Below, one piece after another: positions 7,430 to 27,113 of a DNA stretch of 34,273 nt. The first letter of the stretch is position 1, and every line of letters begins with the position of its first letter. The position numbers were made by a program, and so were the translations under genes. The notes under the pieces were generated by a model. That model did no database searches. It was not told where the DNA came from and saw nothing but the letters and a program-made list of their open reading frames with translations. Where the stretch lies: assembly GCA_947463105.1 (NCBI GenBank), contig CANHSD010000001.1, positions 1 to 34,273 on the forward strand. The letters are read 5' to 3'. This DNA comes from Chitinophagaceae bacterium. GTDB taxonomy: Bacteria; Bacteroidota; Bacteroidia; Chitinophagales; Chitinophagaceae.

Positions 7430-7453
7430 TGAAGGTTTTTATCCAATAAAAGT

Positions 7454-7461: not shown

Positions 7462-7478
7462 CGCAAAATTTACATTAC

Positions 7479-8801: not shown

Positions 8802-8806
8802 TATTT

Positions 8807-8959
8807 GTTTAGAGCGGTTGAGAGAATTTGAGCTTGCCAACCGGAGGTTGGGGAGGTTGAACCTGTTTTTCTAAAGGCAGATGGGTTCAGCCTCTTTCAC
8901 TTTCTCTATACATCCCTAAACCTCCCTCAACCACTTCACCCCCCTCAACCCCTTCAACC
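8807..8959. repeat. Composite intergenic repeat, copy 1 (inverted 9-mer arrays around a palindromic core)
   Basis: GGTTGA-type 9-mers on the left; CCCTCAACC/CCTTCAACC 9-mers at 8914-8959; core 8828-8851 is 22/24 identical to 30624-30647; stem 8853-8866/8881-8894 may terminate ahcY. Confidence 0.75.
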
Positions 8960-8963
8960 TCAT

Positions 8964-9683: not shown

Positions 9684-9721
9684 ACCAATCAAATTTCAAA
9701 ACGTTATTAAAAAAAAAGCAC

Positions 9722-11183: not shown

Positions 11184-12143
11184 ATGGCGAAAATAATTGG
11201 TGTCCTGCATGGCAAGGAAAGATCTTTCCCAGAAGCATTGATCACAAGGATCAATGAAAAGAATATCAAAGGCATTTCAGCAGCACAGGTAAAAATTGAC
11301 AAGGTCATCCAGGGCGACCCTTCAGGGTATGCTGTAATCATTGACAGGATATCCCAGGATGTTCCGTTTTACAGGGCATTCCTCAAAAATGCTGCCATCT
11401 CTGGTACGGCTGTCATCAACAATCCTTTCTGGTGGAGCGCCGATGAAAAGTTTTTCAACAATGCCTTGGCCACCAAAATTGGTGTGCCGGTCCCAAAAAC
11501 AGTTATCCTTCCTTCAAGGGAACTCCCAGACGATACCTCAGCGGAGTCATTTTCCAACCTGGCCTATCCACTGGATTGGAAGGGTATCTTTGATTATGTT
11601 GGGTTTCCAGCATACATGAAACCTTTTGCGGGGGGTGGCTGGAAAAATGTTTACCGACTGAACGACATGAATGAGTTTTTTGAAAGACATGCTGAAACCG
11701 GCCAACTGGTCATGCTCTTGCAGGAAGAGATTGTGTTTGAGGAATATTACCGTTGTTATTGCATCGGCAGAAAGCATGTCCGCATCATGCCATACGAACC
11801 ACGCAACCCCCATCATCTGCGGTATGTTGCCAACTTCAAACCCTCAGCCAAAATGCTGAAGACCATGGAAGATATTGTGTTGAACATCAACAATCATCTT
11901 GGTTATGATTTCAACACTGTTGAATTGGCCATCCGGGATGGCATTCCATACGCGATTGATTTTTGCAACCCTGCCCCAGATGCTGACCTGAAAAGTGTTG
12001 GTCAAGAAAATTTTGACTGGGTTGTTGAGACTTCGGCCAATTATGCGATTGAAGTTGCAGAAAACCTGAAAGAAGGAGCAAACAACCTCGCATGGGGAGA
12101 GTATATCAAAAAAAGCGCAACAGGCAAACCGCTAACCAAATAA
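11184..12143 (+). CDS. ATP-grasp amide ligase (RimK/glutathione synthetase-like)
   Basis: VINNPF...DEKF, VPKTV, FPAYMKPFAGGGWKNV, LLQEEI, AIDFCNPAPD ATP-grasp motifs. Confidence 0.82.
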   Translation: MAKIIGVLHGKERSFPEALITRINEKNIKGISAAQVKIDKVIQGDPSGYAVIIDRISQDVPFYRAFLKNAAISGTAVINNPFWWSADEKFFNNALATKIGVPVPKTVILPSRELPDDTSAESFSNLAYPLDWKGIFDYVGFPAYMKPFAGGGWKNVYRLNDMNEFFERHAETGQLVMLLQEEIVFEEYYRCYCIGRKHVRIMPYEPRNPHHLRYVANFKPSAKMLKTMEDIVLNINNHLGYDFNTVELAIRDGIPYAIDFCNPAPDADLKSVGQENFDWVVETSANYAIEVAENLKEGANNLAWGEYIKKSATGKPLTK

Positions 12144-12156
12144 ACCACCATTCAAG

Positions 12157-13263
12157 ATGATCAACTATAAACAATTTACGGTCGGCATCGAGGAAGAATA
12201 CATGGTCATTGACCCTTCAACCAAAGCGCTGATCAGCCATGAGCAGAAAATAGTTGCTGAAGGTCAAAAAATCATCAGCGAAAAAGTAAAGGCAGAAATG
12301 CACCAGGCGGTGGTAGAAGTGGGCACTGATGTTTGCGACAACATTGAAGATGCCAGGCATGATATCTACAACCTTAGAAAAACAATCCATGGCATCGCTG
12401 AATCGCTGGGATTCAGTGTTGGTGCGGCAGGAACACACCCTTTCAGCACCTGGCGCCAACAGCTGATCACAGACCATATCCGGTACCAGGAAATTGTCAA
12501 TGAGATGCAGGATGCCGCAAGATCCAACCTGATCTTTGGACTGCATGTCCATGTTGGCATGCCCTCCAAGGAAATGGCCATTCACATTGCCAACTCTGCA
12601 AGGTACTTCCTACCCCATGTGTTTGCCCTTAGCGCCAACTCCCCCTTTTGGGAAGGGCGGGTAACTGGGTTTAAATCATATAGAACCAAGGTTTTCGATA
12701 AGTTTCCAAGAACAGGAATACCAGATTATTTTGACAGTTACAGCGCTTACGAGAATTATGTGAACCTGCTCATCAAAACCAACTGCATCGATAATGCCAA
12801 AAAAATCTGGTGGGATCTTCGGGTGCATCCATTTTATGGTACAGTTGAATTCAGGGTATGCGATGTACCCCTTACCGTTGATGAAACGGTGGGCTTTGCA
12901 GCCTTGTTCCAGTGCATTTGTGCCAAGCTGTTCAAACTCAGGGAAGCCAACCTGAACTTCATGATTTATCCCAGGGCCCTGGTGAATGAAAACAAGTGGC
13001 GCGCGTCCCGCTACGGGATTGATGACAAGCTGATCGACTTTGGAAAAGAGCAGGAGGTGAATACCAGGGCTTTGATCCTTGAACTCCTTGATTTTATTGA
13101 TGATGTGGTGGATGAACTGGGCTGCAGGGAAGCCCTTAAAAGCATCACCACCATTTTAGAAAAAGGGACCGGAGCAGACAGACAACTGGAAATCTACAAA
13201 CAAACCAAGAGTTTTCCAGCGGTTGCTGCTTATATCGAATCCAAGTTTCTTGGCAGCCTTTGA
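12157..13263 (+). CDS. ybdK: Carboxylate-amine ligase, YbdK/GCS2 (glutamate--cysteine ligase 2) family
   Basis: FTVGIEEEY, AAGTHPF, FGLHVHVG, ALSANSPFWEG, WWDLRVHPFYGTVEFRVCD, ENKWRASRYG. Confidence 0.92.
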   Translation: MINYKQFTVGIEEEYMVIDPSTKALISHEQKIVAEGQKIISEKVKAEMHQAVVEVGTDVCDNIEDARHDIYNLRKTIHGIAESLGFSVGAAGTHPFSTWRQQLITDHIRYQEIVNEMQDAARSNLIFGLHVHVGMPSKEMAIHIANSARYFLPHVFALSANSPFWEGRVTGFKSYRTKVFDKFPRTGIPDYFDSYSAYENYVNLLIKTNCIDNAKKIWWDLRVHPFYGTVEFRVCDVPLTVDETVGFAALFQCICAKLFKLREANLNFMIYPRALVNENKWRASRYGIDDKLIDFGKEQEVNTRALILELLDFIDDVVDELGCREALKSITTILEKGTGADRQLEIYKQTKSFPAVAAYIESKFLGSL

Positions 13264-13265
13264 TG

Positions 13266-13273
13266 TACCTTTG
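13266..13273 (+). promoter_or_regulatory. Internal -7 promoter box before the GATase gene (TACCTTTG)
   Basis: Exact TAnnTTTG in the 18-bp gap between ybdK and the GATase gene. Confidence 0.5.
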
Positions 13274-13281
13274 TAGGCGAA

Positions 13282-14106
13282 ATGAAGAAGATCAGGATTG
13301 CCATACTGGACCTCTATGATGGTCAACAAAATGAGGGGATGCGGTGCATCAGGGAAATGTTGGTGAGCATGAATACTGCACATCATCAGTCGCTTGAATG
13401 GAAGGAATTTGAAGTGCGCAACAAAGCGGAATTACCTTCATTGGAATTCGATATTTATCTTTCCACCGGTGGGCCCGGAAGTCCTTTGGAAAGTGAGGGA
13501 ACGGCTTGGGACAATGCCTATTTCAAATGGCTCTCAGACTTGGTTGCATGGAACAATGCAGCCAACAACATCAACAAAAAATACGCTTTTTTCATCTGCC
13601 ACTCTTACCAGCTGGCCTGCCGCTATTTTGAATTGGGACATGTAACCAAACGCAAGTCTACTGCATTTGGCGTCTTCCCCATGCACAGGATGGATGCAGG
13701 TCTGGATGAACCTGTTTTCAATGGACTCAACGATCCTATATATGGTGTTGACAGCCGCGACTTTCAGGTAGTCCAGCCCCAACTGGACAGGATGAGGGAA
13801 TTGGGAGCGAAAATGCTTTGCATTGAAAAAGAGCGGCCCCATATTGACCTGGAAAGAGCCGTCATGGCCATCCGGTTCAATGCCTATATGGTAGGAACAC
13901 AGTTTCATCCAGAGGCCGATGCCCAGGGAATGAGCATGTATCTGAAGCGGGAAGACAAGAAAAAAACCGTGATCGAAAACCATGGACAGGAAAAATGGGA
14001 GTCCATGATTGAGCAACTCAATGATCCTGAAAAAATCAGCATGACCAACAGCCATGTCTTGCCCAATTTTATTGTGCAGGCCATTGCCAAGATCAACAAC
14101 CCTTAA
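13282..14106 (+). CDS. Class I glutamine amidotransferase-like protein (possible gamma-glutamyl hydrolase)
   Basis: TGGPGSP oxyanion loop, ICHSYQ nucleophile Cys, QFHPE His-Glu; triad intact. Confidence 0.85.
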   Translation: MKKIRIAILDLYDGQQNEGMRCIREMLVSMNTAHHQSLEWKEFEVRNKAELPSLEFDIYLSTGGPGSPLESEGTAWDNAYFKWLSDLVAWNNAANNINKKYAFFICHSYQLACRYFELGHVTKRKSTAFGVFPMHRMDAGLDEPVFNGLNDPIYGVDSRDFQVVQPQLDRMRELGAKMLCIEKERPHIDLERAVMAIRFNAYMVGTQFHPEADAQGMSMYLKREDKKKTVIENHGQEKWESMIEQLNDPEKISMTNSHVLPNFIVQAIAKINNP

Positions 14107-14128
14107 AGCCTTTCATAAAACACAGGAG

Positions 14129-15322
14129 ATGATCCAAACGATCAGGGAACAATTCAATGCATCATTCAGTCAGGAGAAATATGAAAATTTCCTCAAGGAC
14201 CTGAACAGTGCTTACCCTGGTGCCATTGATTTTCGGGTTGCAGAGACCCCTGTATTCATTGACCGAAAGCTTGGGCAGGAAATGATCCAAACCTGTGAAT
14301 CGATCATCGATTTCATTATCCATCCTGACTTCAATACACTTACCCAAAGGGCCATCCCTGCTGATGAGATGGTTCAGGCGCAAAACAACATATCCCATTT
14401 TATTGCATTCGATTTCGGGATCTGCGAAAACGAAACAGGTGGTTTTTTTCCTGCCCTCATCGAAATGCAGGGCTTCCCCACCCTGTTTGGCATGCAGGCC
14501 TATTATCCGGAGGTATTGGAGAGGCATTTCAAGATTCCTGATGGATTTTCCCACTACTTCAATGGATTGAACAAATTAAGTTATATAGCGCTTCTCAAAC
14601 GTGTAATCCTTGGAGAACACAAGCCAGAAGAAGTAATTCTGCTTGAAATAAAACCGCATCAACAAAAAACAAGGATTGATTTTTATTGCACAGAAGAGTA
14701 CCTGGGCATTGCGCCGGTTTGCATCACTGCATTAACAAAAGAAGGAAGAGAATTGTACTATGACAACAATGGCGTAAAAACAAGGATCAAAAGAATCTAT
14801 AACAGGATCATTGCGGATGAATTGAATGCTGTAAAGGATTCCCTTGGGCCAATTGTGGACCTGAGGGCAGACCTTGATGTGGAGTGGGTGCCCCACCCCA
14901 ACTGGTTTTACAGGATTTCAAAATTCACCCTGCCTTTTCTTCATCACCCATTCATTCCGGAAACTTTTTTCCTCAATGAAGTGAAAAGCATCCCGGAAGA
15001 CCTGCACAATTATGTACTGAAACCCTTGTTTTCATTTGCCGGGCAAGGTGTGGTGATTGATGTAAACAAAGAAGACATTGAGGCCATCCAGCAACCTGAG
15101 CACTGGATTCTGCAACGCAAGGTCAAGTACGCTTCCTGCATCCAAACACCCAATGAACCTGCAAAAGCAGAAATCAGGCTGATGTATGTCTGGGAAGAAG
15201 GAAAAGAAAGACCCACCCTGGCCACTAACCTGGCAAGGCTCAGCAAAGGGAAAATGATTGGCGTAAGGTACAACAAGGACAAAGACTGGGTTGGAGGTTC
15301 TGTAGCCTATTTTGAACAATAA
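14129..15322 (+). CDS. Circularly permuted ATP-grasp-like ligase (glutathionylspermidine synthase-like)
   Basis: FDF...LIEMQ metal-binding segment placed N-terminally, IKRIYNR, HPNWFYRISK, YVLKPLFSFAGQGV, WILQRKV; start set to ATG 14129. Confidence 0.65.
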   Translation: MIQTIREQFNASFSQEKYENFLKDLNSAYPGAIDFRVAETPVFIDRKLGQEMIQTCESIIDFIIHPDFNTLTQRAIPADEMVQAQNNISHFIAFDFGICENETGGFFPALIEMQGFPTLFGMQAYYPEVLERHFKIPDGFSHYFNGLNKLSYIALLKRVILGEHKPEEVILLEIKPHQQKTRIDFYCTEEYLGIAPVCITALTKEGRELYYDNNGVKTRIKRIYNRIIADELNAVKDSLGPIVDLRADLDVEWVPHPNWFYRISKFTLPFLHHPFIPETFFLNEVKSIPEDLHNYVLKPLFSFAGQGVVIDVNKEDIEAIQQPEHWILQRKVKYASCIQTPNEPAKAEIRLMYVWEEGKERPTLATNLARLSKGKMIGVRYNKDKDWVGGSVAYFEQ

Positions 15323-15332
15323 ACATCATCGC

Positions 15333-15650
15333 ATGCCACATCTCAATGAAGTAAACAAGAAATTATTGACAGAAGGAATCATGGGCCAATACGTGCATGG
15401 AGAAAGCACCACCTTAGGATGGGTGACCATCCAGGCAGGCAGCAAACTGCCTGCCCACCATCATCCCCATGAACAAATAACCCTGATGCTCGAAGGGAAA
15501 ATGGAAATGCAAATCGGAGATGAAACGGTTATGCTTGAGCCAGGTGTGGTGAAGGTCATTCCCTCTAATACACCCCACTCAGCCATCGCACATACCGATT
15601 GTATACTGATTGATGTATTCAGTCCTGTAAGGGAAGACTACCGCGACTAG
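15333..15650 (+). CDS. Cupin domain protein
   Basis: PAHHHPHEQ...LEG and IPSNTPHSA cupin motifs, DVFSPVREDY; ATG 15333 preferred. Confidence 0.88.
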   Translation: MPHLNEVNKKLLTEGIMGQYVHGESTTLGWVTIQAGSKLPAHHHPHEQITLMLEGKMEMQIGDETVMLEPGVVKVIPSNTPHSAIAHTDCILIDVFSPVREDYRD

Positions 15651-15652
15651 GA

Positions 15653-16789
15653 TTACTCTTCCCCGCTGTTTTTAAGAATCCCCATCAATTTGTAGGCATT
15701 GTTCAACACTATGGATCCGGCAGGAATTCCCTCATTGCCACTGATCAATGCTGTTTTTCCATCTTTGGAGAGTCCGGTAACGACTGCTTTCATTTCAACC
15801 ACATTCTCGGATTTCCTGACAAAAATATATTGCTTGTTGCCCAGTCTTACCACAGCCTCATCAGGAACGGCATCCACCATCTTGCTGCTTACAGACAACT
15901 CACCCTCCACAAACATACCCGGCAATAGGTTTTTGGGATGAACCTTAAAATGACAATGGGCAGTGGCGGTTCGGTCATCATCAAGGCCCTTGTTGACCAG
16001 AATCACCTCTGCAGCATAAGTCTTTTCCGGTTCATCCATGAAATGAATACTGACCTGGTTTCCTTTCTGCACATAAGGAAGATCCTTTTCAAAAAGGGTG
16101 AGTGCCACATGAATGTCTTCCGGATCAATCAACTCAAACATGGTTTCAGTGGGCTGAACATATTTACCTGTATTTACATTCACCTTAGACACATACCCAT
16201 TGATGGTTGACCGAACAGATGCCTGCCCAGAAATGTTGGATTCATTCAACGCGTTTACATCAATGCCAATCAACTTCAGTTTTTCCTGCAAAGACCTGAC
16301 CGCAACAGCCTGTAGCTTTTGCTCTGCCTGGGCCTGCTGCATGGCCCTTGAAGTTCCTGCACGGGCCTCCACAAGGGCCTTTTGCCTTTCCAGTTCAAGT
16401 CCTGCCAATTCAAGCCGTGCAGCAGCGGAAAGATAGTCCTGCTGCAGCTGAACAATGGCCTGGTCCTCCATGATGGCAATCTCCTCCCCTTTTGATACGT
16501 GCATGCCAGGAATGAGTTTTGTACTCCTCAGGTATCCTCCCAATGGAAAGTTGACAGAGATGAGGTTTTGTGGTGGAAGGTCTATTTTACCTTGCACCGT
16601 AATGATGCTGCTCATGCTGGTTTTAACAGGATCTCCATATTGAAGACCAAGCGCCTTCAATTGATTTTGGGTAAGGTTGATTTCATTGGTTTCTTCAACA
16701 GCTGCTTCTTCGGCAGGTGCGGTTTTACTTCCTGAACAACTTTGAATGAACAAGCAAACGAGGATGAATAAATACATTGAATATCTCAT
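15653..16789 (-). CDS. czcB: RND efflux periplasmic adaptor (CzcB/CusB-like), lipoprotein
   Basis: Lipobox-like FIQSC; coiled-coil hairpin; VRSTINGYV, LLPGMFV, VPDEAVV membrane-fusion-protein motifs; 3 nt downstream of czcA. Confidence 0.88.
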   Translation of the reverse strand: MRYSMYLFILVCLFIQSCSGSKTAPAEEAAVEETNEINLTQNQLKALGLQYGDPVKTSMSSIITVQGKIDLPPQNLISVNFPLGGYLRSTKLIPGMHVSKGEEIAIMEDQAIVQLQQDYLSAAARLELAGLELERQKALVEARAGTSRAMQQAQAEQKLQAVAVRSLQEKLKLIGIDVNALNESNISGQASVRSTINGYVSKVNVNTGKYVQPTETMFELIDPEDIHVALTLFEKDLPYVQKGNQVSIHFMDEPEKTYAAEVILVNKGLDDDRTATAHCHFKVHPKNLLPGMFVEGELSVSSKMVDAVPDEAVVRLGNKQYIFVRKSENVVEMKAVVTGLSKDGKTALISGNEGIPAGSIVLNNAYKLMGILKNSGEE

Positions 16790-16792
16790 GAA

Positions 16793-19700
16793 TTATTTTT
16801 TTTCTGTTAGAAATTGAAACGCTGCAGATGCCATTTGCAATTGATGAATGGTCTCAGCGTGAGCAATCAACACTTGTAAATGCTGCGACTGCAAGAGGCT
16901 GTATTCTGAATAAGATATATCGCCCAAATCCAGCCTTTTCCTGGCCTGGCTCCAGTTATCCGCCGACAACCGCAATCCCTCTGAAACATAGTATTCATGG
17001 GCCTCTTTGGCTGTATTGAAACGTGAAACCACATCAGCCAATCTTCTGTTCAGGTTTTCAAGCTGCTGTTGCTTTTGTATGGCAGCAATCTCTTCTTTGA
17101 TTTTGGCGGCATTGATTTTGGCCTTGGCAGCACCATTGAAAACAGGAATGGAAACCCCTGCCTGAACAATGCCAAAGCGATAGGAAGGTGCATAATACTT
17201 TTGCGAAATCCCGTCTGGTGTTTGCCATCCTGTAATAGAAAGATTGCTGTAGCCCAGGTTGAAATCGGGGGCAAGCCTGTTCTTCTCCAGGGCTGTTTGT
17301 GCAACCTGTTCCTTGACCGCTGCCTCTGCCATTTGGATAGAAGGATGATTTTCAAATGAGGCAATGAGTGCAGGGATATTTTTATCGACCACATTTTCTA
17401 ATGATGGTGTAAAGTTGTTACCCGACATGATCATCCCATTCAACTCCTGTATCAATGCATACCGGTCTGCTTCCAACTGTTTTTTCTGGAAGAGGTACTG
17501 CTTTGTTTGCAACGCAATGGCATTCAAGGCTGCTCCATTGATGTCACCTGCTTTTTGCTGTGCCTCTGCTTTTTTCTGCCACTCAGAAAAAACCCTTAAA
17601 AACCGGTATAAAATTTCATCCCTTCTATCAAGATCCATGATCCTGTAACAGAGTTGCCTGATGGCATGATGAAGCTCCGCCTGCTCAAGATATTTCTTCG
17701 CCTCCTGCAGACCTTCTGTCTTCTGGTATGCTTCTTTTTGTCTTGCATAGACCTTGGGCAATTGGAACTGCTGGTTCAGAAAAAACCGGGTATCATTGGA
17801 GGCGCTGTTGATGTTACCATATTCAGCACCAAAAGAAGTCTTGGGAATCTCTGCTGATTTTTTCTTTAGCCCTGCATAATATTCTACCTGTTTTTGAGCC
17901 ATTTTGAGGGTTAATGCATTCCTGTCTGCCATGGCGATGATGGAGTCAAGTGGCAATGAAGCTGCAGGCCTGGTATTGGGAACATGCCCACTCAATGGCG
18001 ACTCCATTGTCTGGCTGCTTGCAACAAGGGAAAAGAATCCCAGCAGCAGGGTAAGTGCCGGTGCCTTGATAGAACCTTTTCTTTTTTCTACCCAAACATA
18101 GAGCACTGGTAACACAAATAAGGTAAGCAAGGTGGCTGAAATCAATCCACCAATCACCACCGTAGCCAGTGGGCGCTGCACCTCAGCGCCAGAGCTTGTG
18201 CTCAATGCCATGGGCAGAAATCCCAGCGAAGCAACAGCAGCAGTCATCAATACAGGCCTTAGCCTGGTAGCGGTGCCTTTCAACACAAGATCCTTCATGT
18301 TCATTTGGGTTTCATTCTTCAGTCTGTTGAATTCATTGATCAATACAATTCCGTTCAAAACCGCCACGCCAAAAAGCGCGATGAACCCTACCCCAGCTGA
18401 GATACTGAATGGCATGTCGCGCATCCACAACAATAAAATGCCTCCAATGGCAGAAAGCGGAATGGCTGTGTAAATCAACAACCCGTATCTCAGTGAGCCA
18501 AAAGAAAAATACAGGATCAACAGGATCAACAACAAGGCAATAGGTACAGCAATCATCAACCGATCTTTTGCCTCGACGAGGTTCTCAAATTGCCCACCAT
18601 ATTTCACATAATATCCAGCAGGCAATGCAATGGTTTTCTCTGCCTTGGATTGAACCTCCTCAACAACAGATTGAACATCCCTGTCCCTGACATTGAAAGC
18701 CACTGTAATTCTTCGCTTGGCATCCTCCCGCTGAACCTGGTTGGGACCTTCCTGAATACCAATTTCCGCTACCTGTTCAAGGGGAACCGAAATCCCATCG
18801 GGATTGGTAATCATGAGGGTTTTGATGTCTGTCAGATCATTTCGCCTGTTTTCCTTCAAGCGCAAAACAAGGTCGAAGCGCCTTTCATTTTCATAGACCT
18901 GACCGGCAGATTCTCCTGCGAAAGAGGCCCTGAGCACCCTGTTGACATCCGCAATGCTCAAGCCATAAGCAGCGATGGCATTGGGTTTGTACTTGATGAC
19001 AATCTGGGGAAGGCCTGTTACCCTTTCAGTAAAAACATCCTTTGCTCCTTCCACCTTGTGAATGACCTCTTCGTATTGTGCGGCATAAAAAGCAAGGGTA
19101 TCCAGGTCTTCACCAAATATCTTGCAAACAACGTCTTGTTTCGCACCCGCGATCAATTCATTGAAACGCATCTGCACAGGGTACTGAAAACCACCAGTCA
19201 ATCCAGGTACCTTTCCAATGGCAACGCTCATCTTGTTCGCCAGTTCATCATAAGTGGATGCACTGGTCCATTCGTTTTTGGGTTTCAGGTTGACGATGAT
19301 ATCGGTCATTTCAATGGGCATGGGGTCAGTGGGAATTTCACTGGCGCCTATCCGGGTGACCACTTTTTGTACTTCAGGAAACTTTTTCAATTCATGAACG
19401 GCTTTGGTGGTGGCATCAACGGTTTCTCCCAATGAGCTCCCAGTCATCAACCTGGCATCAATGGCAAAATCACCCTCTTCCAATTCAGGAATGAATTCAC
19501 CACCCAAGGTTGAAGCAACATAAAATGAAAGAACCAAAAGAGCAACGGAAGCAGCCACCACTTTCCTCGGATGCTGCAGCAACCTGTCCAAGGCCCTTTG
19601 AAAACCATGTTGAAGCTTCAACATCATTCGATCAGAAATATTTTCCTTATGGTTGAGTTTTTTGCTCAACACAACACTTGTCATCATCGGCACATAGGTA

Positions 19701-21181
19701 AGGGAGAGGATAAAGGCCCCTACCAGTGCAAATGCGACAGTCTGTGCCATGGGCTTGAACATCTTGCCTTCGATGCCGGTTAGGCTAAGGATGGGGATAT
19801 AAACGATAAGGATGATGATTTGTCCAAACACTGCAGCTCCCATCATTCTTCCTGCAGATTGTTCAACGGTATGGTCCATCTGGCCCTGTCTCAGTTGCAG
19901 GCCCATGTGCTTATTGGAGTGCAGCCTGTGGAGTACTGCCTCCACTATAATTACTGCACCATCAACAATCAATCCAAAATCGAGCGCTCCTAAACTCATC
20001 AGGTTTCCTGTCACACCAAAAAGGTTCATCATGCCCACAGCAAACAGCATGGCCAGTGGGATTACTGAAGCTACAATCAGCCCTGCCCGGAGGTTTCCCA
20101 GGAAAAAAACCAGGATCAGTAAAACAATCATCGCCCCCTCCAGCAAATTGGTCTTTACAGTCCCCAATGTGCGGTTGACCATTTTGGTGCGATCCAGAAA
20201 AGTATTGATTTCTACCCCCTCTGGCAAGCTCTTTTCAATTTGCTTCATGCGCTCCTCAATATGCCCTATCACATCAGCAGCATTTTCTCCTTTCAACATG
20301 AGCACCACGGCCCCAGACACTTCTCCTTCATCCATGTAGGTAAGAGCGCCATACCGCACTGGGCTGCCAATTCTTGCTTCTGCAATATCCCTGATGTAAA
20401 TAGGGGTGCCAGCAGCAGATTTGGCCACATAGATATTTTGAATCTCTTCAATTGATTTGACAAGCCCTTCTGACCTTACAAACAAAAGTGAAGGACCTTT
20501 CTCAATATAGGCAGCCCCTGAATTCTGGTTATTGTTCTGGATGGCATTGAATACCTGGTCAAATGTCACCCCTGCCCCTTTCAATTTCACAGGATCAATG
20601 GCTACTTCGTATTGTTTTAGCTTACCACCAAAACTGCTCACATCGGCAACACCAGGAGTTCCCAACAATTGCCTCCTGATGATCCAGTCCTGGATGGTGC
20701 GCAATTCAGTGAGGTCATATTTATCCTCATATCCTTTCTTAGGTCGAACGATATACTGATAAATTTCACCCAGTCCTGTGGTGACAGGGGCTAGCTCAGG
20801 GGTACCTGCTTCTTTGGGGATTTCGTCCCTGACCAGCAGCATCCGCTCACTCACCTGTTGCCTGGCCCAATAAATGTCTTTGTCATCATCAAATACAACC
20901 GTAACTACAGAGAGACCAAATCTAGAAATAGACCTTATCTCTTTGATATCCGGTATGTTGGATGATGCCTGCTCGATGGGGAAAGTAATCAATCGTTCCA
21001 CCTCAAGCGAACCGAGGGTGGGTGAAACTGTAATGACCTGAACCTGATTGGAAGTGATGTCTGGAAGGGCGTCAACCGGAAGTTTAAACAACTCTATTGC
21101 GCCCCAAATGATCCATCCCAATGTAAATAATCCTATGATGAGCTTGTTCCTGATGGAAAAGCGGATGATTGCATTCAACAT
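16793..21181 (-). CDS. czcA: CusA/CzcA heavy-metal RND transporter fused to a C-terminal TolC-like outer membrane factor (1462 aa)
   Basis: LPVDALPDIT, GNLMSLGALDFGLIVDGAVIIVE, GFIALFGVAVLNG, RLRPVLMTA, EVQRPLATVVIGG, then ~406 aa helical OEP-like region; start set to ATG 21181. Confidence 0.92.
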   Translation of the reverse strand: MLNAIIRFSIRNKLIIGLFTLGWIIWGAIELFKLPVDALPDITSNQVQVITVSPTLGSLEVERLITFPIEQASSNIPDIKEIRSISRFGLSVVTVVFDDDKDIYWARQQVSERMLLVRDEIPKEAGTPELAPVTTGLGEIYQYIVRPKKGYEDKYDLTELRTIQDWIIRRQLLGTPGVADVSSFGGKLKQYEVAIDPVKLKGAGVTFDQVFNAIQNNNQNSGAAYIEKGPSLLFVRSEGLVKSIEEIQNIYVAKSAAGTPIYIRDIAEARIGSPVRYGALTYMDEGEVSGAVVLMLKGENAADVIGHIEERMKQIEKSLPEGVEINTFLDRTKMVNRTLGTVKTNLLEGAMIVLLILVFFLGNLRAGLIVASVIPLAMLFAVGMMNLFGVTGNLMSLGALDFGLIVDGAVIIVEAVLHRLHSNKHMGLQLRQGQMDHTVEQSAGRMMGAAVFGQIIILIVYIPILSLTGIEGKMFKPMAQTVAFALVGAFILSLTYVPMMTSVVLSKKLNHKENISDRMMLKLQHGFQRALDRLLQHPRKVVAASVALLVLSFYVASTLGGEFIPELEEGDFAIDARLMTGSSLGETVDATTKAVHELKKFPEVQKVVTRIGASEIPTDPMPIEMTDIIVNLKPKNEWTSASTYDELANKMSVAIGKVPGLTGGFQYPVQMRFNELIAGAKQDVVCKIFGEDLDTLAFYAAQYEEVIHKVEGAKDVFTERVTGLPQIVIKYKPNAIAAYGLSIADVNRVLRASFAGESAGQVYENERRFDLVLRLKENRRNDLTDIKTLMITNPDGISVPLEQVAEIGIQEGPNQVQREDAKRRITVAFNVRDRDVQSVVEEVQSKAEKTIALPAGYYVKYGGQFENLVEAKDRLMIAVPIALLLILLILYFSFGSLRYGLLIYTAIPLSAIGGILLLWMRDMPFSISAGVGFIALFGVAVLNGIVLINEFNRLKNETQMNMKDLVLKGTATRLRPVLMTAAVASLGFLPMALSTSSGAEVQRPLATVVIGGLISATLLTLFVLPVLYVWVEKRKGSIKAPALTLLLGFFSLVASSQTMESPLSGHVPNTRPAASLPLDSIIAMADRNALTLKMAQKQVEYYAGLKKKSAEIPKTSFGAEYGNINSASNDTRFFLNQQFQLPKVYARQKEAYQKTEGLQEAKKYLEQAELHHAIRQLCYRIMDLDRRDEILYRFLRVFSEWQKKAEAQQKAGDINGAALNAIALQTKQYLFQKKQLEADRYALIQELNGMIMSGNNFTPSLENVVDKNIPALIASFENHPSIQMAEAAVKEQVAQTALEKNRLAPDFNLGYSNLSITGWQTPDGISQKYYAPSYRFGIVQAGVSIPVFNGAAKAKINAAKIKEEIAAIQKQQQLENLNRRLADVVSRFNTAKEAHEYYVSEGLRLSADNWSQARKRLDLGDISYSEYSLLQSQHLQVLIAHAETIHQLQMASAAFQFLTEKK

Positions 21182-21186
21182 GATTT

Positions 21187-21223
21187 CTGATTTTTTTTGT
21201 GAACGGGTACCTAAAAAAATCAG
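21187..21223 (-). promoter_or_regulatory. Hairpin joining the leader ORF stop codon to the czcA initiation region
   Basis: Perfect 11-bp inverted repeat CTGATTTTTTT/AAAAAAATCAG; 3' arm covers -16..-6 of the czcA ATG. Confidence 0.6.
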
Positions 21224-21597
21224 CTGCATTTTGGAGGCTGAAAAACAGAAAACTGATGACACTGTGGCATCATACCCTTGCTGATCGGATTAAAATTGGA
21301 CATGTCCGACTGCCACAATGGTGCTAAATGAAAAGACTCCACTGGTGGATGGTATACCTGGGTGAACGAAATTCCTGTATTCCTCAAAGGAAGGGTTGCA
21401 TGCCTAACAGGATCTGAATTTTCATGGTTGCTGTCAAAATAATGGAATTGAATGAACTCAATGGCGGACAAGGGCTGACTGCTGTTTTTGTGCTCATAGA
21501 AATGGTCCACGAGATTGTCAAACTTAACCAACTCATCCATAAAATGCCCAGAGCTGATGATCTGAATGGCAACAATAAAAAAGATTACCTTTTTCAC
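21220..21597 (-). CDS. His-rich small protein ending FQPPK; candidate metal-responsive arrest leader peptide
   Basis: GTG start, N-terminal hydrophobic segment, HFYEH, HYFDSNH, HATLP, C-terminal VFQPPKCS; directly upstream of czcA. Confidence 0.7.
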   Translation of the reverse strand: MKKVIFFIVAIQIISSGHFMDELVKFDNLVDHFYEHKNSSQPLSAIEFIQFHYFDSNHENSDPVRHATLPLRNTGISFTQVYHPPVESFHLAPLWQSDMSNFNPISKGMMPQCHQFSVFQPPKCS

Positions 21598-21601
21598 TAT
21601 C

Positions 21602-21609
21602 TGAAGATA
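21602..21609 (-). promoter_or_regulatory. Variant -7 box (TATCTTCA) 4 nt before the GTG start
   Basis: TAnnTTCA variant with the same 4-nt spacing as the exact boxes at 24118 and 28723. Confidence 0.4.
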
Positions 21610-21702
21610 GGATTTTCGGCGTAATTCAAATGCACTATTTGCAGCATTGCCGCTTGGTAAACACTATCCGCAAGCACCTGATACAGATTTTGATGATATT
21701 TC

Positions 21703-22569
21703 TCATTTCTTCTTCCGCTTGATCACATTGAGGAAACTGCGCTCATAACTGATGGACAGAGAGGAGGTACCCATCCGGTAAGCCCCTCCACTGATCTGGA
21801 AGCGATAACCTGCATTGATTTTCGCATTGCTGTTCACAATCAGCTGTATGGCTGGGGCCAGGTCCATAAAGGAATAATCCCTGTCGAGACCCCTTGAGCC
21901 AATCAGTTCCAGATAAATGTTGAAGTTCGTCTGTTCATAGCTTGTATATTTTCTGGGGAGAAGTAAATACCCTGTGGAAAGACTGTAGTTAAACGACCGG
22001 TAACCATAAAAAGTTTGCCCACCAAAGTCTTTCCACCGGTCTGGATGCATTACCTCCACCAGGGAACCCGTGCCAGAGATGGCAAGCTTGTGCAGGAGTT
22101 GTGTCAGAATCAATCCTCCCTGAATGGCTGTCTGGTCTCCATCCCCGGTAATTTCCTCGTATTGCAAATCGTTCTTACTGATGATCCCCTTAACAAATGC
22201 AGCTGCCCTGAAATGGCGGTGAACATCATCAACAGACAATAACCTCAGTTTTGCATAAATGGAGGCAGATTCAAACCTCAGCTTTTGGTCTGGATATGTA
22301 TTGTACATATTACCAAAGCTTATTGCCGGCCTGAGCATAAGGAATTTACCCAATCCTATAGATGATTCCGCCATTTGCCTGGATGTTGTATGTTTATGTC
22401 CGAGTGCAGATTCCCCCATCCACTTGCCTGCATATTTAAAAGACAAAGACTTTGCTGGAACGTTGGAAGCAGGCTCACTATAAACATAAAGTTCCTGGGC
22501 AGTAAGGCTAAAGCAAAACAATACCAGGAAACCAAAAATCAGCGGTAAACGCAATTTGTAAGGGATCAT
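21703..22569 (-). CDS. Hypothetical exported protein, probable outer-membrane beta-barrel (288 aa)
   Basis: Signal peptide LTA|Q; amphipathic aromatic strands; ATG 22569 overlaps the upstream stop (ATGA). Confidence 0.65.
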   Translation of the reverse strand: MIPYKLRLPLIFGFLVLFCFSLTAQELYVYSEPASNVPAKSLSFKYAGKWMGESALGHKHTTSRQMAESSIGLGKFLMLRPAISFGNMYNTYPDQKLRFESASIYAKLRLLSVDDVHRHFRAAAFVKGIISKNDLQYEEITGDGDQTAIQGGLILTQLLHKLAISGTGSLVEVMHPDRWKDFGGQTFYGYRSFNYSLSTGYLLLPRKYTSYEQTNFNIYLELIGSRGLDRDYSFMDLAPAIQLIVNSNAKINAGYRFQISGGAYRMGTSSLSISYERSFLNVIKRKKK

Positions 22570-23114
22570 AACGTAACATGAAAAATTCCCACTGCTCCCC
22601 CAATTCCTTCGGGCATGACGCAGGGAGTGGATTTGGTGAATTGATAACAAGGAACTTTTGATCCTGTGGTCTGTTTCTTAAACGCTTTGGCTGATAAAAA
22701 CTTTTGGTCAATCACCCTTATCTCAAAACTGGATGGAGATTGCTGGGCTTTGACATCAATGAAGTGGAAAACATTGTCCCCTATTTTGACCTTTTTATCA
22801 TGCCCAATAGCTAAACCGGCCTGATTCACTTTCAACAAAAGTTTTGAAACAGAGAAACCGGCATCTTCCACTTTCTTCCGTATTGCTTCGATGTCCAGTT
22901 TAGCTCCAGGCCTGAAAACAATCAAGAAAGATGATGTTTCAAGATCTGTATCCACGCTATCAATAAAATCAAGGGAAGTAAGGTTGGTATAAATGGATTT
23001 TGCACAAAGAGCACAGGTCAGGCCGCTGGCCTGCAGACTGGCCTTGCTGATTTGTGAAAATGAAATAGTTGACCACAGGAGCATACCCATGATCAGGCTT
23101 AAAATTTTAGTCAT
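22566..23114 (-). CDS. Exported heavy-metal-associated (HMA) domain protein
   Basis: Signal peptide SFS|Q; GLTCALC metal loop; VEDAGF HMA C-terminal motif. Confidence 0.85.
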   Translation of the reverse strand: MTKILSLIMGMLLWSTISFSQISKASLQASGLTCALCAKSIYTNLTSLDFIDSVDTDLETSSFLIVFRPGAKLDIEAIRKKVEDAGFSVSKLLLKVNQAGLAIGHDKKVKIGDNVFHFIDVKAQQSPSSFEIRVIDQKFLSAKAFKKQTTGSKVPCYQFTKSTPCVMPEGIGGAVGIFHVTL

Positions 23115-23127
23115 GATGGTTGAAATG

Positions 23128-23154
23128 AGGGCCCATCTGTTGAGATCGGGCCCT
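23128..23154 (-). other. GC-rich intercistronic hairpin between the two HMA genes
   Basis: AGGGCCC-ATCT/AGAT-C-GGGCCCT stem; no U-tract on the coding strand, so more likely a stability element than a terminator. Confidence 0.5.
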
Positions 23155-23165
23155 TTGGTGATTGA

Positions 23166-23654
23166 TTATTTCTTACAACATTCCTTGCCCTTCTCACATT
23201 TTCCATCCTTGCAGCAAGCCTTGTCTTTTTCACATTTTCCGTCTTTGCAGCAGTCCATCTTGTGGTCACAGTTTTCCATGCCGCAGCATTCTTTTTTTGC
23301 ACCATCTTTGACCACAACAGCTGCAGCTTTTCTTTCATATTGGCAGCAACCATGGAGCTTGTTGTAAACTTCAGTTGGTGCGGTAACATCCTGTGTATCG
23401 TAACCGGATGCTGCAACGGCCTCCTGAATGGCCTTGGCATCAGTCTTCTTTGGCTTGTAAGAAACATTGAGTATTTTGGTTTCCTCACTCCAGCTTGCGG
23501 TTGAAGCACCGGCCTTTATTGCAGCAGTTTCAATGACTTTTTTACACATGCCGCAGTTTCCCCAAACCTTGATTTCCTCTGATTTTTGGGCAAACATTGA
23601 GGTGGAGAACAATAACGCGAACAGGAGTATTGAAAATGATATTTTAGTATTCAT
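23166..23654 (-). CDS. Exported HMA domain protein (CopZ/MerP-like) with Cys-rich repeat tail
   Basis: Signal peptide MFA|Q; GNCGMC; VAASGYD; LHGCCQYER; tail with 11 Cys. Confidence 0.87.
   Translation of the reverse strand: MNTKISFSILLFALLFSTSMFAQKSEEIKVWGNCGMCKKVIETAAIKAGASTASWSEETKILNVSYKPKKTDAKAIQEAVAASGYDTQDVTAPTEVYNKLHGCCQYERKAAAVVVKDGAKKECCGMENCDHKMDCCKDGKCEKDKACCKDGKCEKGKECCKK
23169..23288 (-). repeat. 36-bp (12-aa) coding tandem repeat CC-x4-C-x5, three units plus terminal CCKK
   Basis: CCGMENCDHKMD / CCKDGKCEKDKA / CCKDGKCEKGKE / CCKK. Confidence 0.85.
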
Positions 23655-23697
23655 TTTGATTGATTTTTGATAGATAAGAGTAAAGTAAGATGACCAA

Positions 23698-23738
23698 TGA
23701 AGTTGTTGAGCAGTGAAATACTACTCAAAAACAACTCA
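23698..23738 (-). promoter_or_regulatory. Hairpin starting at the stop codon of the HYC-CC-PP ORF
   Basis: mRNA UGAGUUG-UUU-UUGAGUAGU/AUUUC/ACUGCUCAA-CAACUUCA: 9-bp inner stem plus outer stem, then a G-poor pyrimidine-rich tract. Confidence 0.5.
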
Positions 23739-24113
23739 AATCCTGAAATTGCAGTTCAGGAGATAGGGCGGAGGCTTAATAAACTGCCTATGGAAAAAGC
23801 TTTTTGTATTGGGCGTTTTACAAGTAAACGAACTGTTATAATGGTCAAAAAAGAGGACTGATGAAAATGCTGGACTGAAATCAAAACCAGCAATCACTTG
23901 GCTCTCAAGAACAGAATTGTCAATTTTAATTACCTGTGGAAGATCGTGACAACATCCCTCATCCTCCATTCCACAAAATTCACATCCATGGCTGTCGCGC
24001 TCTCCAAAAGATACTGCAGCCAAATCTCCCATACAATAATGTGCACTGATTACAGTTCCACTGCTGGCGGCAGTGTAAACCATGAGCAACAGTATGGAGA
24101 GGATTTTTTTCAC
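23736..24113 (-). CDS. HYC_CC_PP-type small protein; candidate metal-responsive arrest leader peptide
   Basis: GTG start, hydrophobic N-terminus, HYC (25-27), CEFC (44-47), CCH (54-56), PPP (114-116), ends LNCNFRI; family name recalled from annotations, not searched. Confidence 0.8.
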   Translation of the reverse strand: MKKILSILLLMVYTAASSGTVISAHYCMGDLAAVSFGERDSHGCEFCGMEDEGCCHDLPQVIKIDNSVLESQVIAGFDFSPAFSSVLFFDHYNSSFTCKTPNTKSFFHRQFIKPPPYLLNCNFRI

Positions 24114-24117
24114 TCTA

Positions 24118-24125
24118 CAAAATTA
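24118..24125 (-). promoter_or_regulatory. -7 promoter box (TAATTTTG) 4 nt before the GTG start
   Basis: Exact TAnnTTTG; spacing suggests a leaderless mRNA. Confidence 0.65.
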
Positions 24126-24177
24126 ACAACAAAAACCTATTGAGGTTGAAAAAAGTAGCATTTTAACAGAAAAATGA

Positions 24178-26262
24178 TTAATTCACAAAATTCCAAAAAA
24201 TCCCCAACCGGAATACCATGCCGGGATTGGGATAATTGGGCGCCGAAAGGTTATTTTCTTTGAACCCAAAGCCATATTTCAGCGTTGCCGTATTCAGGTT
24301 CTCTAACCTGAGATAGGCTGTGAAACTTCTGATCCTGAAATGGGTGAAGCCAGTAATCTCTGGCCTTGGAGACAATTTACGCTGGTCCTGATAAAAGAAC
24401 TGCCCTGTCAGGGGTGAATACCCATCTGCAAAATATGCACTGACATACCGCAAATCAATACCAGAGGCAATCACGAGATTGCGAAAAGGTCTTGCCTCAT
24501 AAGACAACCTATTCCTGGTATAAAGCAGTGGCAAATGAATGGGGGCAGCACCTGCCTTGGTTTGAACATGAAGATCAAGGTACCATTTCCATTTTTTACC
24601 CAACGCAGTTTCCCGGCTGATGCCAGCCCGAACAAAATTGAACAATGGTGCGTACTGCGCCACTGTTTTGTAATCCTTGAAATAAGTGTAATTGGACTGC
24701 AGAAAATAACTGAAGCTCAGCCTTGCCTTTACACCATTCAGAAAGAGGCCAGCATTGATGGCTGTTACATTTTCATCATTGAAACTGGATGTTCTGAAAA
24801 CAGGAAAAGCAGTTTTTCTGGCATAGAGGTAAGAAGGAGAACGGTTGATGTTGTTAAACCCAAGTTCCAACGATCCCAATGGGCCAAGTTTTGTCTGGAG
24901 GTTGGCCTGCACATTGTAATTGCCCGCATCCCTGCCAGCAGCATAAAACTCACCATACAAGAGCATGTCCCATTTTTTATTACGGGTCCGGTTCCTGTAT
25001 TCCCCATGCAACATGAGGTTACCAAAAACATCCCTCAATGAATCAGGAGAGGAGGAAAATTGCTGCAGGGTTATGCCAGCTTTTAAAAACTGCAATGGGT
25101 TTTTTGAATCGGGAAATTGAATGATGGAAAAATCATTTTTCAAGACCGACCAATTGCTATTGAGGTCCACTGTATCTGGAACATTGGCAAACCCATAATT
25201 GGACTTGTAAAAATTTTCTGCATTGCGTGCCTGCACATCCAGAAAATGATAGGCATAACCATTGGATTGAACCGTATGTTCCAAGCGGAGCTTGGGATAG
25301 AAAAAACGCACAACAGTTGAATCTGTCACTACAGAATCTTTGATACCAAAATCATACTGTTGCCTCAGCAAGAGGTGTTTATCTGTGTACCTGTTACCAG
25401 TGATCAATTTGACATTGAAAAAATTCCTGGAAGAATAGGCAGCAGATGCAAGATTGGTTGGGATGTTGAACCTGTCGTCGTAAGCAGGATTTTGATTCAC
25501 CAGCAAGGATTCATCTGTAATACCACCGTTTTCTGCGGTTTGCAATGCATTCGAAAGCAGGATCAGGTAGGCATGATACCGCTTGCTTTTTGAGGTATAA
25601 TCTGAATTGAACCGGATGTTGTTGTGGTTGGTGTTTTGGGAATTGAATGTCCCAGGTGCATTGACCAGCCTGTATTCCAGCACGAAGTTCCAATCGGGCA
25701 TCACATTCTGTGTATGCAAAATACTGATCTGCTGCTCAGCCTTGCTCCCCACCAGATAGCCTAATTCAGTAAAGGGCTTGGTGGTATTCATGAACCGCGT
25801 ATCTGAAATCTTCAGGGCAAATGGATCGAGTGCATGAAAACCGGCATCCCAGCCAGGCATTCTCATCGGAGAGAATAGAATAGGCCTTGTCGCATTGCCA
25901 TTGTGCCCAATGTTGATGAGGTCTGCCTTGAGGGGAACCCTGCGAAAAAAATCGTTGATGGAGGAATCGAAGACATTGTATCGGGCTGTATCAAGATAGC
26001 GAAAACGGACATTGACAGAATCATCTGAGAACTTGCGTTTTTCAAAACTAAGGGAATCACTTCCTCCTCCACCTGCACTTCCCCCACCCGATCCACTACC
26101 TCCCATCCTGGAACCCATCCCCTGCATGCTACGCATCATCCCGCGCATTTGTGCAGCAGCAGAAAAAGTTGAGAGCATAGCCATCACCAACAAAAACAAG
26201 AGAAGCATCCCTGTTCTTGGAGGCTTCTGCGCTTGTATTGATTTGATGAAATTGCCGTTCAT
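24178..26262 (-). CDS. Putative beta-barrel porin (Bacteroidota putative porin family)
   Basis: Signal peptide AAA|Q; NTTKPFTELGY, LHTQNV, ENGGI, YFADGYSPLTGQF, C-terminal FRLGIFWNFVN; start may instead be 26208. Confidence 0.75.
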   Translation of the reverse strand: MNGNFIKSIQAQKPPRTGMLLLFLLVMAMLSTFSAAAQMRGMMRSMQGMGSRMGGSGSGGGSAGGGGSDSLSFEKRKFSDDSVNVRFRYLDTARYNVFDSSINDFFRRVPLKADLINIGHNGNATRPILFSPMRMPGWDAGFHALDPFALKISDTRFMNTTKPFTELGYLVGSKAEQQISILHTQNVMPDWNFVLEYRLVNAPGTFNSQNTNHNNIRFNSDYTSKSKRYHAYLILLSNALQTAENGGITDESLLVNQNPAYDDRFNIPTNLASAAYSSRNFFNVKLITGNRYTDKHLLLRQQYDFGIKDSVVTDSTVVRFFYPKLRLEHTVQSNGYAYHFLDVQARNAENFYKSNYGFANVPDTVDLNSNWSVLKNDFSIIQFPDSKNPLQFLKAGITLQQFSSSPDSLRDVFGNLMLHGEYRNRTRNKKWDMLLYGEFYAAGRDAGNYNVQANLQTKLGPLGSLELGFNNINRSPSYLYARKTAFPVFRTSSFNDENVTAINAGLFLNGVKARLSFSYFLQSNYTYFKDYKTVAQYAPLFNFVRAGISRETALGKKWKWYLDLHVQTKAGAAPIHLPLLYTRNRLSYEARPFRNLVIASGIDLRYVSAYFADGYSPLTGQFFYQDQRKLSPRPEITGFTHFRIRSFTAYLRLENLNTATLKYGFGFKENNLSAPNYPNPGMVFRLGIFWNFVN

Positions 26263-26276
26263 GAATAGGTGATGAA

Positions 26277-27113
26277 TCAGTTTGTAGAAACAAGATCCAG
26301 GGTCTCGATCATTGTTTTGAAAATGGATGTCAGTTTTGGTGCTGCGATATTGGCTGCATCCAGCACTTCCTGGTGGGTGATGATATTGTCCTCCTCGCGG
26401 ATGCCAAGATCAGTAATCACGCTCATGGCAAATACCGTCATGCCACAATGGATGGCGGCAATTACTTCCTGTACGGTGCTCATCCCAACGGCATCAGCAC
26501 CCAACAGGTGAATCATCTTGTACTCTGCCCTGGTTTCAAAAGTTGGACCTGTAACACCGTAGTAAATACCTTCCCTCAGGGAATGTCCAAGCGTTGAGGC
26601 CACTGCATGGGCCTTGCTAACCAGTGCTTTTGAATAAGGCTCACTCATGTCTGGGAAACGAGGACCCAGTGCAGCAATATTTTTTCCCAGCAAAGGATTG
26701 ACAATGGAAAAACTGATATGGTCTTTGATGATCATGAGGTCACCGACCTTGAATCCTGGATTGACGCCACCTGCCGCATTGGAAACAAAAAGAAACTGCG
26801 CACCCAATGCCTGCATCACCCTCACCGGAAAAACCACCTCTTGTGCGGTGTACCCTTCGTAATAATGGAACCTGCCGGCCATGACCACCACAGCCTTGTC
26901 TCCTACCTTGCCCAGGATCAGTTTTCCACTATGACCCTCAACGGTTGAAACCGGGAAATGGGGAATTTCAGTATAGGAAATCTCAGTATATACTTCGACA
27001 TGCTCAATAAATCCGCCCAACCCACTTCCTAGAATGACCCCCACCTCAAGAGGATTGGCATGCCTATTCTTTATAAAGCCAACCGCCTCGATTATCTTAC
27101 TGATTTCATCCAT
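26277..27113 (-). CDS. punA: Purine-nucleoside phosphorylase (trimeric PNP-I/XapA type)
   Basis: ILGSGLG, STVEGHSG, GRFHYYEG, NAAGG, GPTFET, GADAVGMSTV; start set to ATG 27113. Confidence 0.93.
   Translation of the reverse strand: MDEISKIIEAVGFIKNRHANPLEVGVILGSGLGGFIEHVEVYTEISYTEIPHFPVSTVEGHSGKLILGKVGDKAVVVMAGRFHYYEGYTAQEVVFPVRVMQALGAQFLFVSNAAGGVNPGFKVGDLMIIKDHISFSIVNPLLGKNIAALGPRFPDMSEPYSKALVSKAHAVASTLGHSLREGIYYGVTGPTFETRAEYKMIHLLGADAVGMSTVQEVIAAIHCGMTVFAMSVITDLGIREEDNIITHQEVLDAANIAAPKLTSIFKTMIETLDLVSTN

Follow-up and report, generated by a model that had tools for sequence, protein, structure and literature searches.

The window considered here is a stretch of 34,273 nucleotides (nt) of contig CANHSD010000001.1 from a Chitinophagaceae bacterium, whose genome assembly comprises 2.68 Mb, is 86% complete and has 44% GC. 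On its minus strand lies a cluster of metal-related genes in the order porin gene, ORF A, two HMA genes, a gene for a 288-amino acid (aa) protein, ORF B, a CzcA-OEP fusion gene and an adaptor gene. ORF A and ORF B are short open reading frames (ORFs), and both are real and conserved; judging from sequence, they are most likely nascent-chain metal sensors of the CutF-like type. The features of the cluster are as follows.

24118..24125, minus strand: exact -7 promoter box TAATTTTG, matching the Bacteroidota -7 box, 4 nt upstream of the GTG of ORF A
23736..24113, minus strand: ORF A, candidate leader of 125 aa, HYC_CC_PP (NF047658) and DUF8199 (Atlas cluster)
23741..23761, minus strand: hairpin of 7 bp within the final codons of ORF A, retained by the five closest relatives
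23655..23740, minus strand: candidate intergenic switch region after ORF A, with two alternative pairings of the stop strand
23166..23654, minus strand: HMA (CxxC) protein with a signal and a Cys/Lys-rich tail (PF00403, E 4.6e-5, slightly below the cut-off; MerP/CopZ matches also below cut-off)
22566..23114, minus strand: second HMA protein with a signal (PF00403, E 3.9e-10)
21703..22569, minus strand: exported protein of 288 aa, family unnamed (candidate barrel; 1319 homologues)
21602..21609, minus strand: -7-like box TATCTTCA, agreeing at 4 of 6 fixed positions, 4 nt upstream of ORF B
21220..21597, minus strand: ORF B, candidate leader of 125 aa, unnamed His-rich family (772 representatives at 50% identity)
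21187..21223, minus strand: predicted 11-bp helix from the stop of ORF B into the A-rich czcA start region (21213-21223 pairs with 21187-21197)
16793..21181, minus strand: RND pump of the ZneA/CzcA type with a fused outer-membrane efflux domain (ATG at 21181; D/M/E at the CusA Met-triad positions)
15653..16789, minus strand: CzcB/CusB-type periplasmic adaptor, identified by Pfam/NCBIfam profile matches

An earlier note on this DNA had described the two ORFs as unrelated in sequence and built to one design. Their families, hereafter families A and B, are indeed alike only in the signal-like N-terminus (hhalign, 23 columns), which is basic and then hydrophobic in both and is modelled as a helix by AlphaFold2 (AF2), and which would be either a cleaved signal or a membrane anchor. 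The shared design holds for the 125 codons, the GTG-AAA start, the TGA stop and the 4-nt gap to the promoter box, but the box of ORF B is only a partial match, and the equal length is a coincidence, the family medians being 132 aa (A) and 127 aa (B). Each ORF is present in a single copy in the genome.

ORF A scored 33.3 bits against the NF047658 profile (cut-off 28) and is thus a member of HYC_CC_PP. It comprises a hydrophobic helix, a three-stranded Cys/His domain with the candidate ligands H25, C27, C44, C47, C54 and C55, a low-confidence spacer, a Pro-Pro-Pro motif at codons 114-116 (23774-23766) and nine further residues belonging to a conserved tail that ends in F-R-I. The AF2 model consists of a small beta domain followed by an unstructured spacer (predicted template-modelling score, pTM, 0.45). 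ORF B comprises a hydrophobic helix, a helical HxxEH...FxxFLxxHY...LP domain with the candidate ligands H32, H36 and H52 (plus H58 and H66), a spacer and an [IV][FW]QPP tail, in which the Pro-Pro pair (PP) occupies residues 121-122 (codons 21237-21232) and is followed by three residues. Its AF2 model shows a helical domain and then an unstructured spacer (pTM 0.57), and H32, H52, Y53, P70, P121 and P122 are invariant in 101 family-B rows. The ligand-to-PP spacer, put by the earlier note at 50-58 aa, spans 55 residues from H66 and 51 from P70 to P121 in ORF B, and slightly exceeds that range in ORF A (59 from C55 to P114). Neither Pfam nor NCBIfam supplied a name for ORF B, Foldseek returned no match for it, and fold searches were uninformative (best Z 2.6 for A and 3.3 for B); a 93%-identical homologue carries the label Chitinophagaceae.

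The profile of ORF B matched in 52 of 301 phylum genomes, its weak matches in the C-terminal half including DUF6660 (PF20365). None of 101 family-B members matched DUF6660; all seven of the weak C-half matches that were tested proved to be DUF6660, with which ORF B has its C-terminal half and WQPP tail in common. At one locus (L123, G094:C9:118600-123500), two DUF6660-like leaders stand in tandem before a single czcA. Internal stops were observed in three family-B leaders (L095, G186:C2; L101, G090:C10; L107, G154:C15), and behind the natural mutants L095 and L107 the czcA frame stays open across the region examined. In 8 of 88 loci family B heads a hydrophobic protein of ~170 aa with an N-terminal His-x-x-x-(Asn/Thr)-His-x-Pro motif and no Pfam match (L089:921-1436, L090, L103, L104, L177, L182, L249 and L256).

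The conservation of PP was assessed with N-terminal profiles ending before the spacer, which makes the test non-circular, in 151 genomes of the order. These profiles detected family A in 105 and family B in 48 genomes, and among the newly found ORFs a PP near the end was present in 52/56 (A) and 41/41 (B). An initial family-B count of 146/150 was circular and was replaced by this one. By comparison, of the 1532 long ORFs in the genome, 47 carry PP within the final 25 residues and 21 within the final 15; six of its 88 small signal-like ORFs carry it within the final 22, and two of these six are ORF A and ORF B. The full profile search detected family A in 82 of 301 phylum genomes, and in 16 of 16 within its own family. 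The loci analysed below cover part of the genome matches, made up of an initial set of loci and 140 further regions. Both window ORFs have PP within the last 15 residues, which is the filter used for the CutF-like class (PMC9973294), as do 87/88 family-B leaders but only 25/130 of family A, because 10-16 conserved residues follow PP in that family.

The distance from the ligands to the end of the leader is conserved. In family A, the Cys-Cys pair (CC) lies 71 residues from the end (standard deviation, sd, 2.2; range 68-78; n=125) and 55 from PP (sd 2.0), and the loop between the ligands measures 33 residues (sd 6.6; range 25-56; n=125). In family B, the distance is 53 from Leu-Pro to PP and 71 (sd 1.6) from H52 to PP in the newly found set. 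Ungapped comparison of ORF A with five close relatives gave 91 synonymous and 24 non-synonymous codon changes in the core and 30 and 91, respectively, in the spacer. The spacer sequence thus drifts while its length stays fixed.

A gene on the same strand begins within 500 nt downstream in 129/130 family-A and 88/88 family-B loci, with a median gap of ~90 nt; in the window the gaps are 81 nt (ORF A) and 38 nt (ORF B). With neighbour labels taken from 33 cluster representatives, ~92 of 129 family-A neighbours carry RND, HMA/CxxC, HMBD or MbnP domains, and TonB receptors make up a further 20. By type, family A heads HMA or TonB proteins (64), RND pumps (36), HMBD (8), MbnP (3) and others. Family B heads RND pumps in 66 of 88 loci, and RND, CusB or VIT1 proteins in 69.

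In a midpoint-rooted tree of 112 pump fragments, the 36 pumps that follow family A split from the 63 of family B and 13 of DUF6660. All 36 fall in one clade of the Met-triad CusA type. Motifs read by regular expression gave Met at the first CusA Met site in 10/11 family-A pumps and 0/38 others, and Glu at the third site in all 24 non-A pumps where the motif was found. In a PDB search, one family-A pump fragment matched nothing and a long fragment matched CusA only. The window pump, which follows ORF B, has ZneA as its best PDB match and D/M/E in place of the Met triad. These patterns suggest Cu(I)/Ag(I) as the ion for A and a divalent one, such as Zn, for B; they do no more than suggest it, since leader and pump are inherited together. 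Against assigning the metal by ligand, the Cys-rich leaders of DUF6660 stand ahead of the same ZneA-type pumps that follow family B, which means that the metal cannot be read from the type of ligand alone. The equation of Cys with Cu/Ag and His with Zn in the earlier note therefore fits the pump types of these two families and does not generalise.

Bacteroidota start regions are A-rich and tuned by structure (PMC6847099). We compared the duplex between the stop strand of each leader and its own next start (native) with duplexes formed with the starts of relatives (swapped), and modelled the ribosome as an unpaired block. The folding tests covered loci with gaps of 35-200 nt and excluded five with a broken leader or a wrong start (L095, L107, L203, L194 and L094); loci without PP were also excluded from an independent relief set (43 A and 34 B loci). 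Native duplexes were stronger in 92/118 cases for family A (-9.9 versus -5.5 kcal), 51/79 for family B (-7.5 versus -5.2 kcal) and 11/12 for DUF6660 (-8.9 versus -6.0 kcal). Control junctions from the same loci had no excess (-6.9 versus -6.6 kcal; 12/25). The excess of native pairing is maximal at the stop and absent at the family-A PP position. In family A, a ribosome at the stop opened the next start by at least 3 kcal in 47/61 loci, and a ribosome at PP in none; in the independent set the same relief was obtained in 30/43 loci at the stop and 3/43 at PP. Controls gave it in 13/80. Relief of at least 3 kcal at the stop was found for family B in 20/42 loci and in 15/34 of the independent set. 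For DUF6660, the helix is opened in 8/11 loci by a ribosome that has only reached PP.

Within the window, both predicted helices begin at the stop codons, as the earlier note had stated. Opening the ORF B helix costs 7.7 kcal when free, 8.4 kcal with the ribosome at PP and 3.5 kcal with the ribosome at the stop. Six of 78 swapped partners formed a better duplex than the native one, a soft figure because the two test segments of ORF B overlap by 7 nt. Behind ORF A, the predicted minimum is a local pairing of 23730-23736 with 23701-23707, and an alternative pairs 23725-23740 with 23655-23670 at the start of the HMA gene; the clade of ORF A keeps two local hairpins. A stem-loop over the next start is thus predicted for ORF B and family-wide but is absent from the predicted minimum of ORF A itself.

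Where the ribosome would pause appears to differ between the families. Family A carries 1.45 bits of information over the last 10 residues versus 0.49 over the 8 before PP (n=106, thinned), its conserved residues running right up to the stop, and the Phe at -3 is conserved at the protein level, since its codons vary synonymously (TTC 54, TTT 41). Its PP lies ~15 codons upstream of the stop helix, which a ribosome at PP cannot reach. Conservation after PP and the geometry of the helix make a pause at the stop codon, or beside it, more likely for family A than one at PP. Family B carries 1.53 bits before PP (I, W/F, Q), as in elongation-arrest motifs. The assignment of both ORFs to the CruR/CutF-like class by the earlier note is thus supported by position, spacer, PP, helix and the split of pump types, but its placement of the ribosome at PP is likely wrong for family A.

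We have moderate confidence that both ORFs act in cis as nascent-chain metal sensors that open the next gene through the stop-anchored helix. Guided by the signal, the ligand domain would be exported by way of Sec. Some 50 residues bridge the peptidyl transferase centre (PTC) and the periplasm (PMC7513700), and the tether of 55-71 residues is longer than this, so the ligands could already be outside with the ribosome still at the leader end. Metal binding would prolong the pause, as in CutF, and the lingering ribosome would melt the helix that pairs the stop region with the next start, turning the next gene on. B may pause at [FW]QPP, three codons before the stop, and A at or next to the stop with PP 10-16 residues up the tunnel; from their neighbours, A would sense Cu(I)/Ag(I) and B a divalent ion such as Zn. 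ORF B of the window suits the helix model. The output of the ORF A sub-clade may differ, through mRNA stability or termination, since the local hairpin leaves the next start free.

Several observations weigh against this account. In family B, a ribosome at PP gave relief in only 11/42 loci and 11/34 of the independent set, and placing the first Pro in the P site brings ORF B none (8.4 versus 7.7 kcal). The stop-to-start duplex of ORF A is ~10 kcal weaker than its local hairpin and is beaten by 23/117 swapped partners, and its next start is predicted to be open (1.4 kcal; 0.9-5.7 in the six-member clade). When alignments of close relatives were folded, no pair with compensatory changes on both sides emerged, and the ORF B helix failed to appear. 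In family A, the last Ile codon is ATT in 75/88 leaders and the stop is TGA in 68/130, compared with 34/173 long ORFs of the same loci, either of which may reflect RNA-level constraint; the non-polar tail could be a protease signal, as said of CruR (PMC9426467); and PP is absent from 11/130 ORFs. No RAPP or RGPP motif occurs in the tails, which read [FW]QPP[KR] in B and x-PP in A, and the account offers no mechanism by which metal binding to His could extend a pause instead of ending it. The loci are also related, so that the counts are not independent. As a separate observation, the family-A TGA excess occurs mostly as ATT-TGA-T, which may relate to RNA pairing or to release-factor choice.

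In an alternative model, a PP stall without metal would keep the helix closed, and metal-driven folding of the exported domain would free the chain, so that the ribosome reached the stop, melted the helix and coupled translation to the next gene. Such a switch has the correct sign for efflux genes, agrees with the ORF B energetics (8.4 kcal at PP, 3.5 at the stop) and has a parallel in CruR, whose stall is freed by metal (PMC9426467); the distance from the last ligand to PP, ~55 residues in both families, is also near the ~50-residue PTC-to-periplasm span (PMC7513700). We nonetheless consider it rather unlikely, because family A is little conserved before PP, unlike known elongation-arrest motifs, its conserved tail would require a separate role, and in DUF6660, which has the tail of B, the helix opens with the ribosome no further than PP (8/11).

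Two further explanations move the sensing or the output elsewhere. The compact conserved N-domains of both ORFs could belong to periplasmic metal binders acting in trans, stable or short-lived, as quenchers or chaperones like CzcI, with the helix serving ordinary coupling and transcription factors doing the sensing. CzcI is the nearest named Atlas cluster for B (0.92, with only 111/256 features in common), and the genome (86% complete) has candidate sensors in two MerR-type, one Fur and two ArsR-type regulators and in 15 response-regulator matches, all below the CusR/CzcR cut-off. A released protein, however, would have no reason to keep a spacer fixed within two residues or a terminal PP, the leaders nearly always come first ahead of a same-strand gene, and no CsoR was found in this genome, so that we regard action in trans as improbable. 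Alternatively, control could be exerted on transcription as in CruR, with a paused ribosome shielding a Rho-loading or cleavage site and the output being read-through or mRNA stability. This would be most plausible for the ORF A sub-clade, given its open next start and its two kept hairpins, and the intergenic C/G ratio is 1.28 (A) and 1.19 (B) versus 0.99 in controls. That excess is small, however, the gaps are ~90 nt against 162 nt in cruR-bfrG, and the family-wide stop-to-start pairing favours control of initiation; as a general explanation it seems very improbable to us.

A sigma-70 promoter scan was set aside because it addressed the wrong promoter type. The Bacteroidota -7 box lies at -12 to -5 of the transcription start site, and 5.5% of Flavobacterium psychrophilum mRNAs are leaderless (PMC9723704). 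With that spacing and the observed gap between box and start, both window ORFs are predicted to have leaderless mRNAs. An exact TAnnTTTG lies 3-8 nt upstream of the start in 50/130 family-A and 42/87 family-B leaders, and in 23/583 operon-leading ORFs of the genome, whose starts were guessed as the first ATG. No helix-turn-helix protein or response regulator was found among the 20 ORFs scanned at 10279-34265 (ORFs at 77-10228 lie outside the scan), in agreement with the earlier note that the cluster has no recognisable DNA-binding regulator. Upstream of ORF B no operator-like palindrome was found, and near ORF A there was one 8-nt T/A pair; there are no Rfam matches within 15000-26500. The earlier division into two sub-operons is inferential, since no terminator-like site was found between the 288-aa gene and ORF B; the scan returned three such sites against 3.3 expected.

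The RNA runs were available as contigs and small shares only, so that neither start site nor expression level can be read from them and absent cover above 24120 is not evidence. Over 30 bases (23733-23762) at the last ORF A codons and stop, the strains in these runs are identical; nearby they differ by up to 10%. Six RNA contigs from three studies end at 23762; a processed 5' end there was rejected, since one contig (X3) joins 23733-23765 to the upstream part of ORF A through a 30-nt overlap, making the contig ends an assembly branch between strains.

Among the remaining genes, Cys/Lys-rich repeats containing several CC pairs form the C-terminus of the first HMA protein (23166-23300, minus strand) and resemble a metallothionein. 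The ATG of the 288-aa protein gene overlaps the stop of the HMA gene; the protein has no Pfam or NCBIfam match, and none of the 120 homologues listed out of 1319 carries a Pfam domain. The linker between the CzcA and efflux domains (~18020-18110, minus strand) contains an in-frame, basic-then-hydrophobic, signal-like segment. On the plus strand, 11184-15322 encodes a RimK-like ATP-grasp protein, a YbdK carboxylate-amine ligase, a glutamine amidotransferase-like protein and, with a faint match to GSP_synth, a protein of 422 aa; together they form a candidate peptide-ligase cluster.

Metal-resistance switching in a large phylum may rest on such candidate leader peptides, given their frequencies (82/301 and 105/151 genomes for A, 48/151 for B). 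ORF A and ORF B would offer a natural Cys/His pair for metal biosensors. In a broader proposal, possible but held tentatively, HYC_CC_PP/DUF8199 proteins would be trans-envelope Cu sensors that arrest at termination, with a 71-residue ruler joining a Cys cluster in the periplasm to a tail that finishes level with the stop codon, where the mRNA strand would mask the next start. Together with the His family and DUF6660, which would have a swappable QPP arrest tail in common, they would place much Cu and Zn resistance in Bacteroidota under leaderless nascent-peptide sensors rather than CusRS/CzcRS-type regulators. The literature searched contained no case of a termination arrest that is controlled by a ligand and read out across the inner membrane. 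Nor did the search, which mostly left out subscription papers, return any paper on HYC_CC_PP, DUF8199 or DUF6660 among those listed, or a test in Bacteroidota; on upstream-ORF stalling with copper in Bacteroidota it returned PMC9973294 only, and it gave no useful Flavobacterium metal transcriptome.

Regarding known systems, the earlier note had presented the ORFs as Bacteroidota analogues of known leaders. They are less new than this suggests, because the CutF-like class (Oeztuerk 2023, PMC9973294) already includes Bacteroidota (19% of 5,334 proteins), ACR_tran, TonB and chaperone neighbours and His-only variants. New here are the length ruler, the stop-anchored helix and the case for a termination pause in HYC_CC_PP. 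With Cu, CutF of Rhodobacter capsulatus stalls at PPP, and a stem-loop is thereby opened (PMC9973294; bioRxiv 10.1101/2025.02.05.636593). Both ORFs share with CutF-like proteins a length below 150 aa, a Cys/His motif, a C-terminal PP and the first position before metal genes, with a same-strand gene inside the 1000-nt limit of that class; of its other traits, the N-terminus is signal-like in both ORFs, and a stem-loop over the next start is predicted for ORF B and family-wide but not in the minimum of ORF A. They differ in the A-rich start, which replaces a Shine-Dalgarno sequence, in a predicted near-leaderless mRNA and, for family A, in the 10-16 conserved residues after PP; the His-only clusters described in PMC9973294 precede HupE/UreJ and not CzcA, the gene that follows ORF B.

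CruR (Bp2923) from Bordetella pertussis undergoes arrest at RAPP, which Cu relieves (PMC9426467, PMC12992588). It resembles the two leaders in that a constant distance separates its metal motif from a proline motif, and in heading metal operons. It senses in the cytoplasm through CxxC-45 aa-RAPP, with no signal needed, and turns import off through Rho (PMC9426467), whereas here the spacing is 55-71, RAPP is absent and the targets are mostly efflux and chaperone genes. The CruR pattern was not found in the two ORFs of the window, where the CxxC of ORF A (44-47) lies 67 residues ahead of KPPP and ORF B has FQPP and no CxxC. DUF2946 was matched by 0/108 family-A and 0/101 family-B members, and two of the 108 family-A members matched DUF6769 weakly. 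CliM of Clostridioides difficile, likened here by description and not by sequence, monitors YidC and not a ligand; as a membrane-targeted leader that arrests at termination (PMC13183943), it provides a precedent for the pause proposed for family A.

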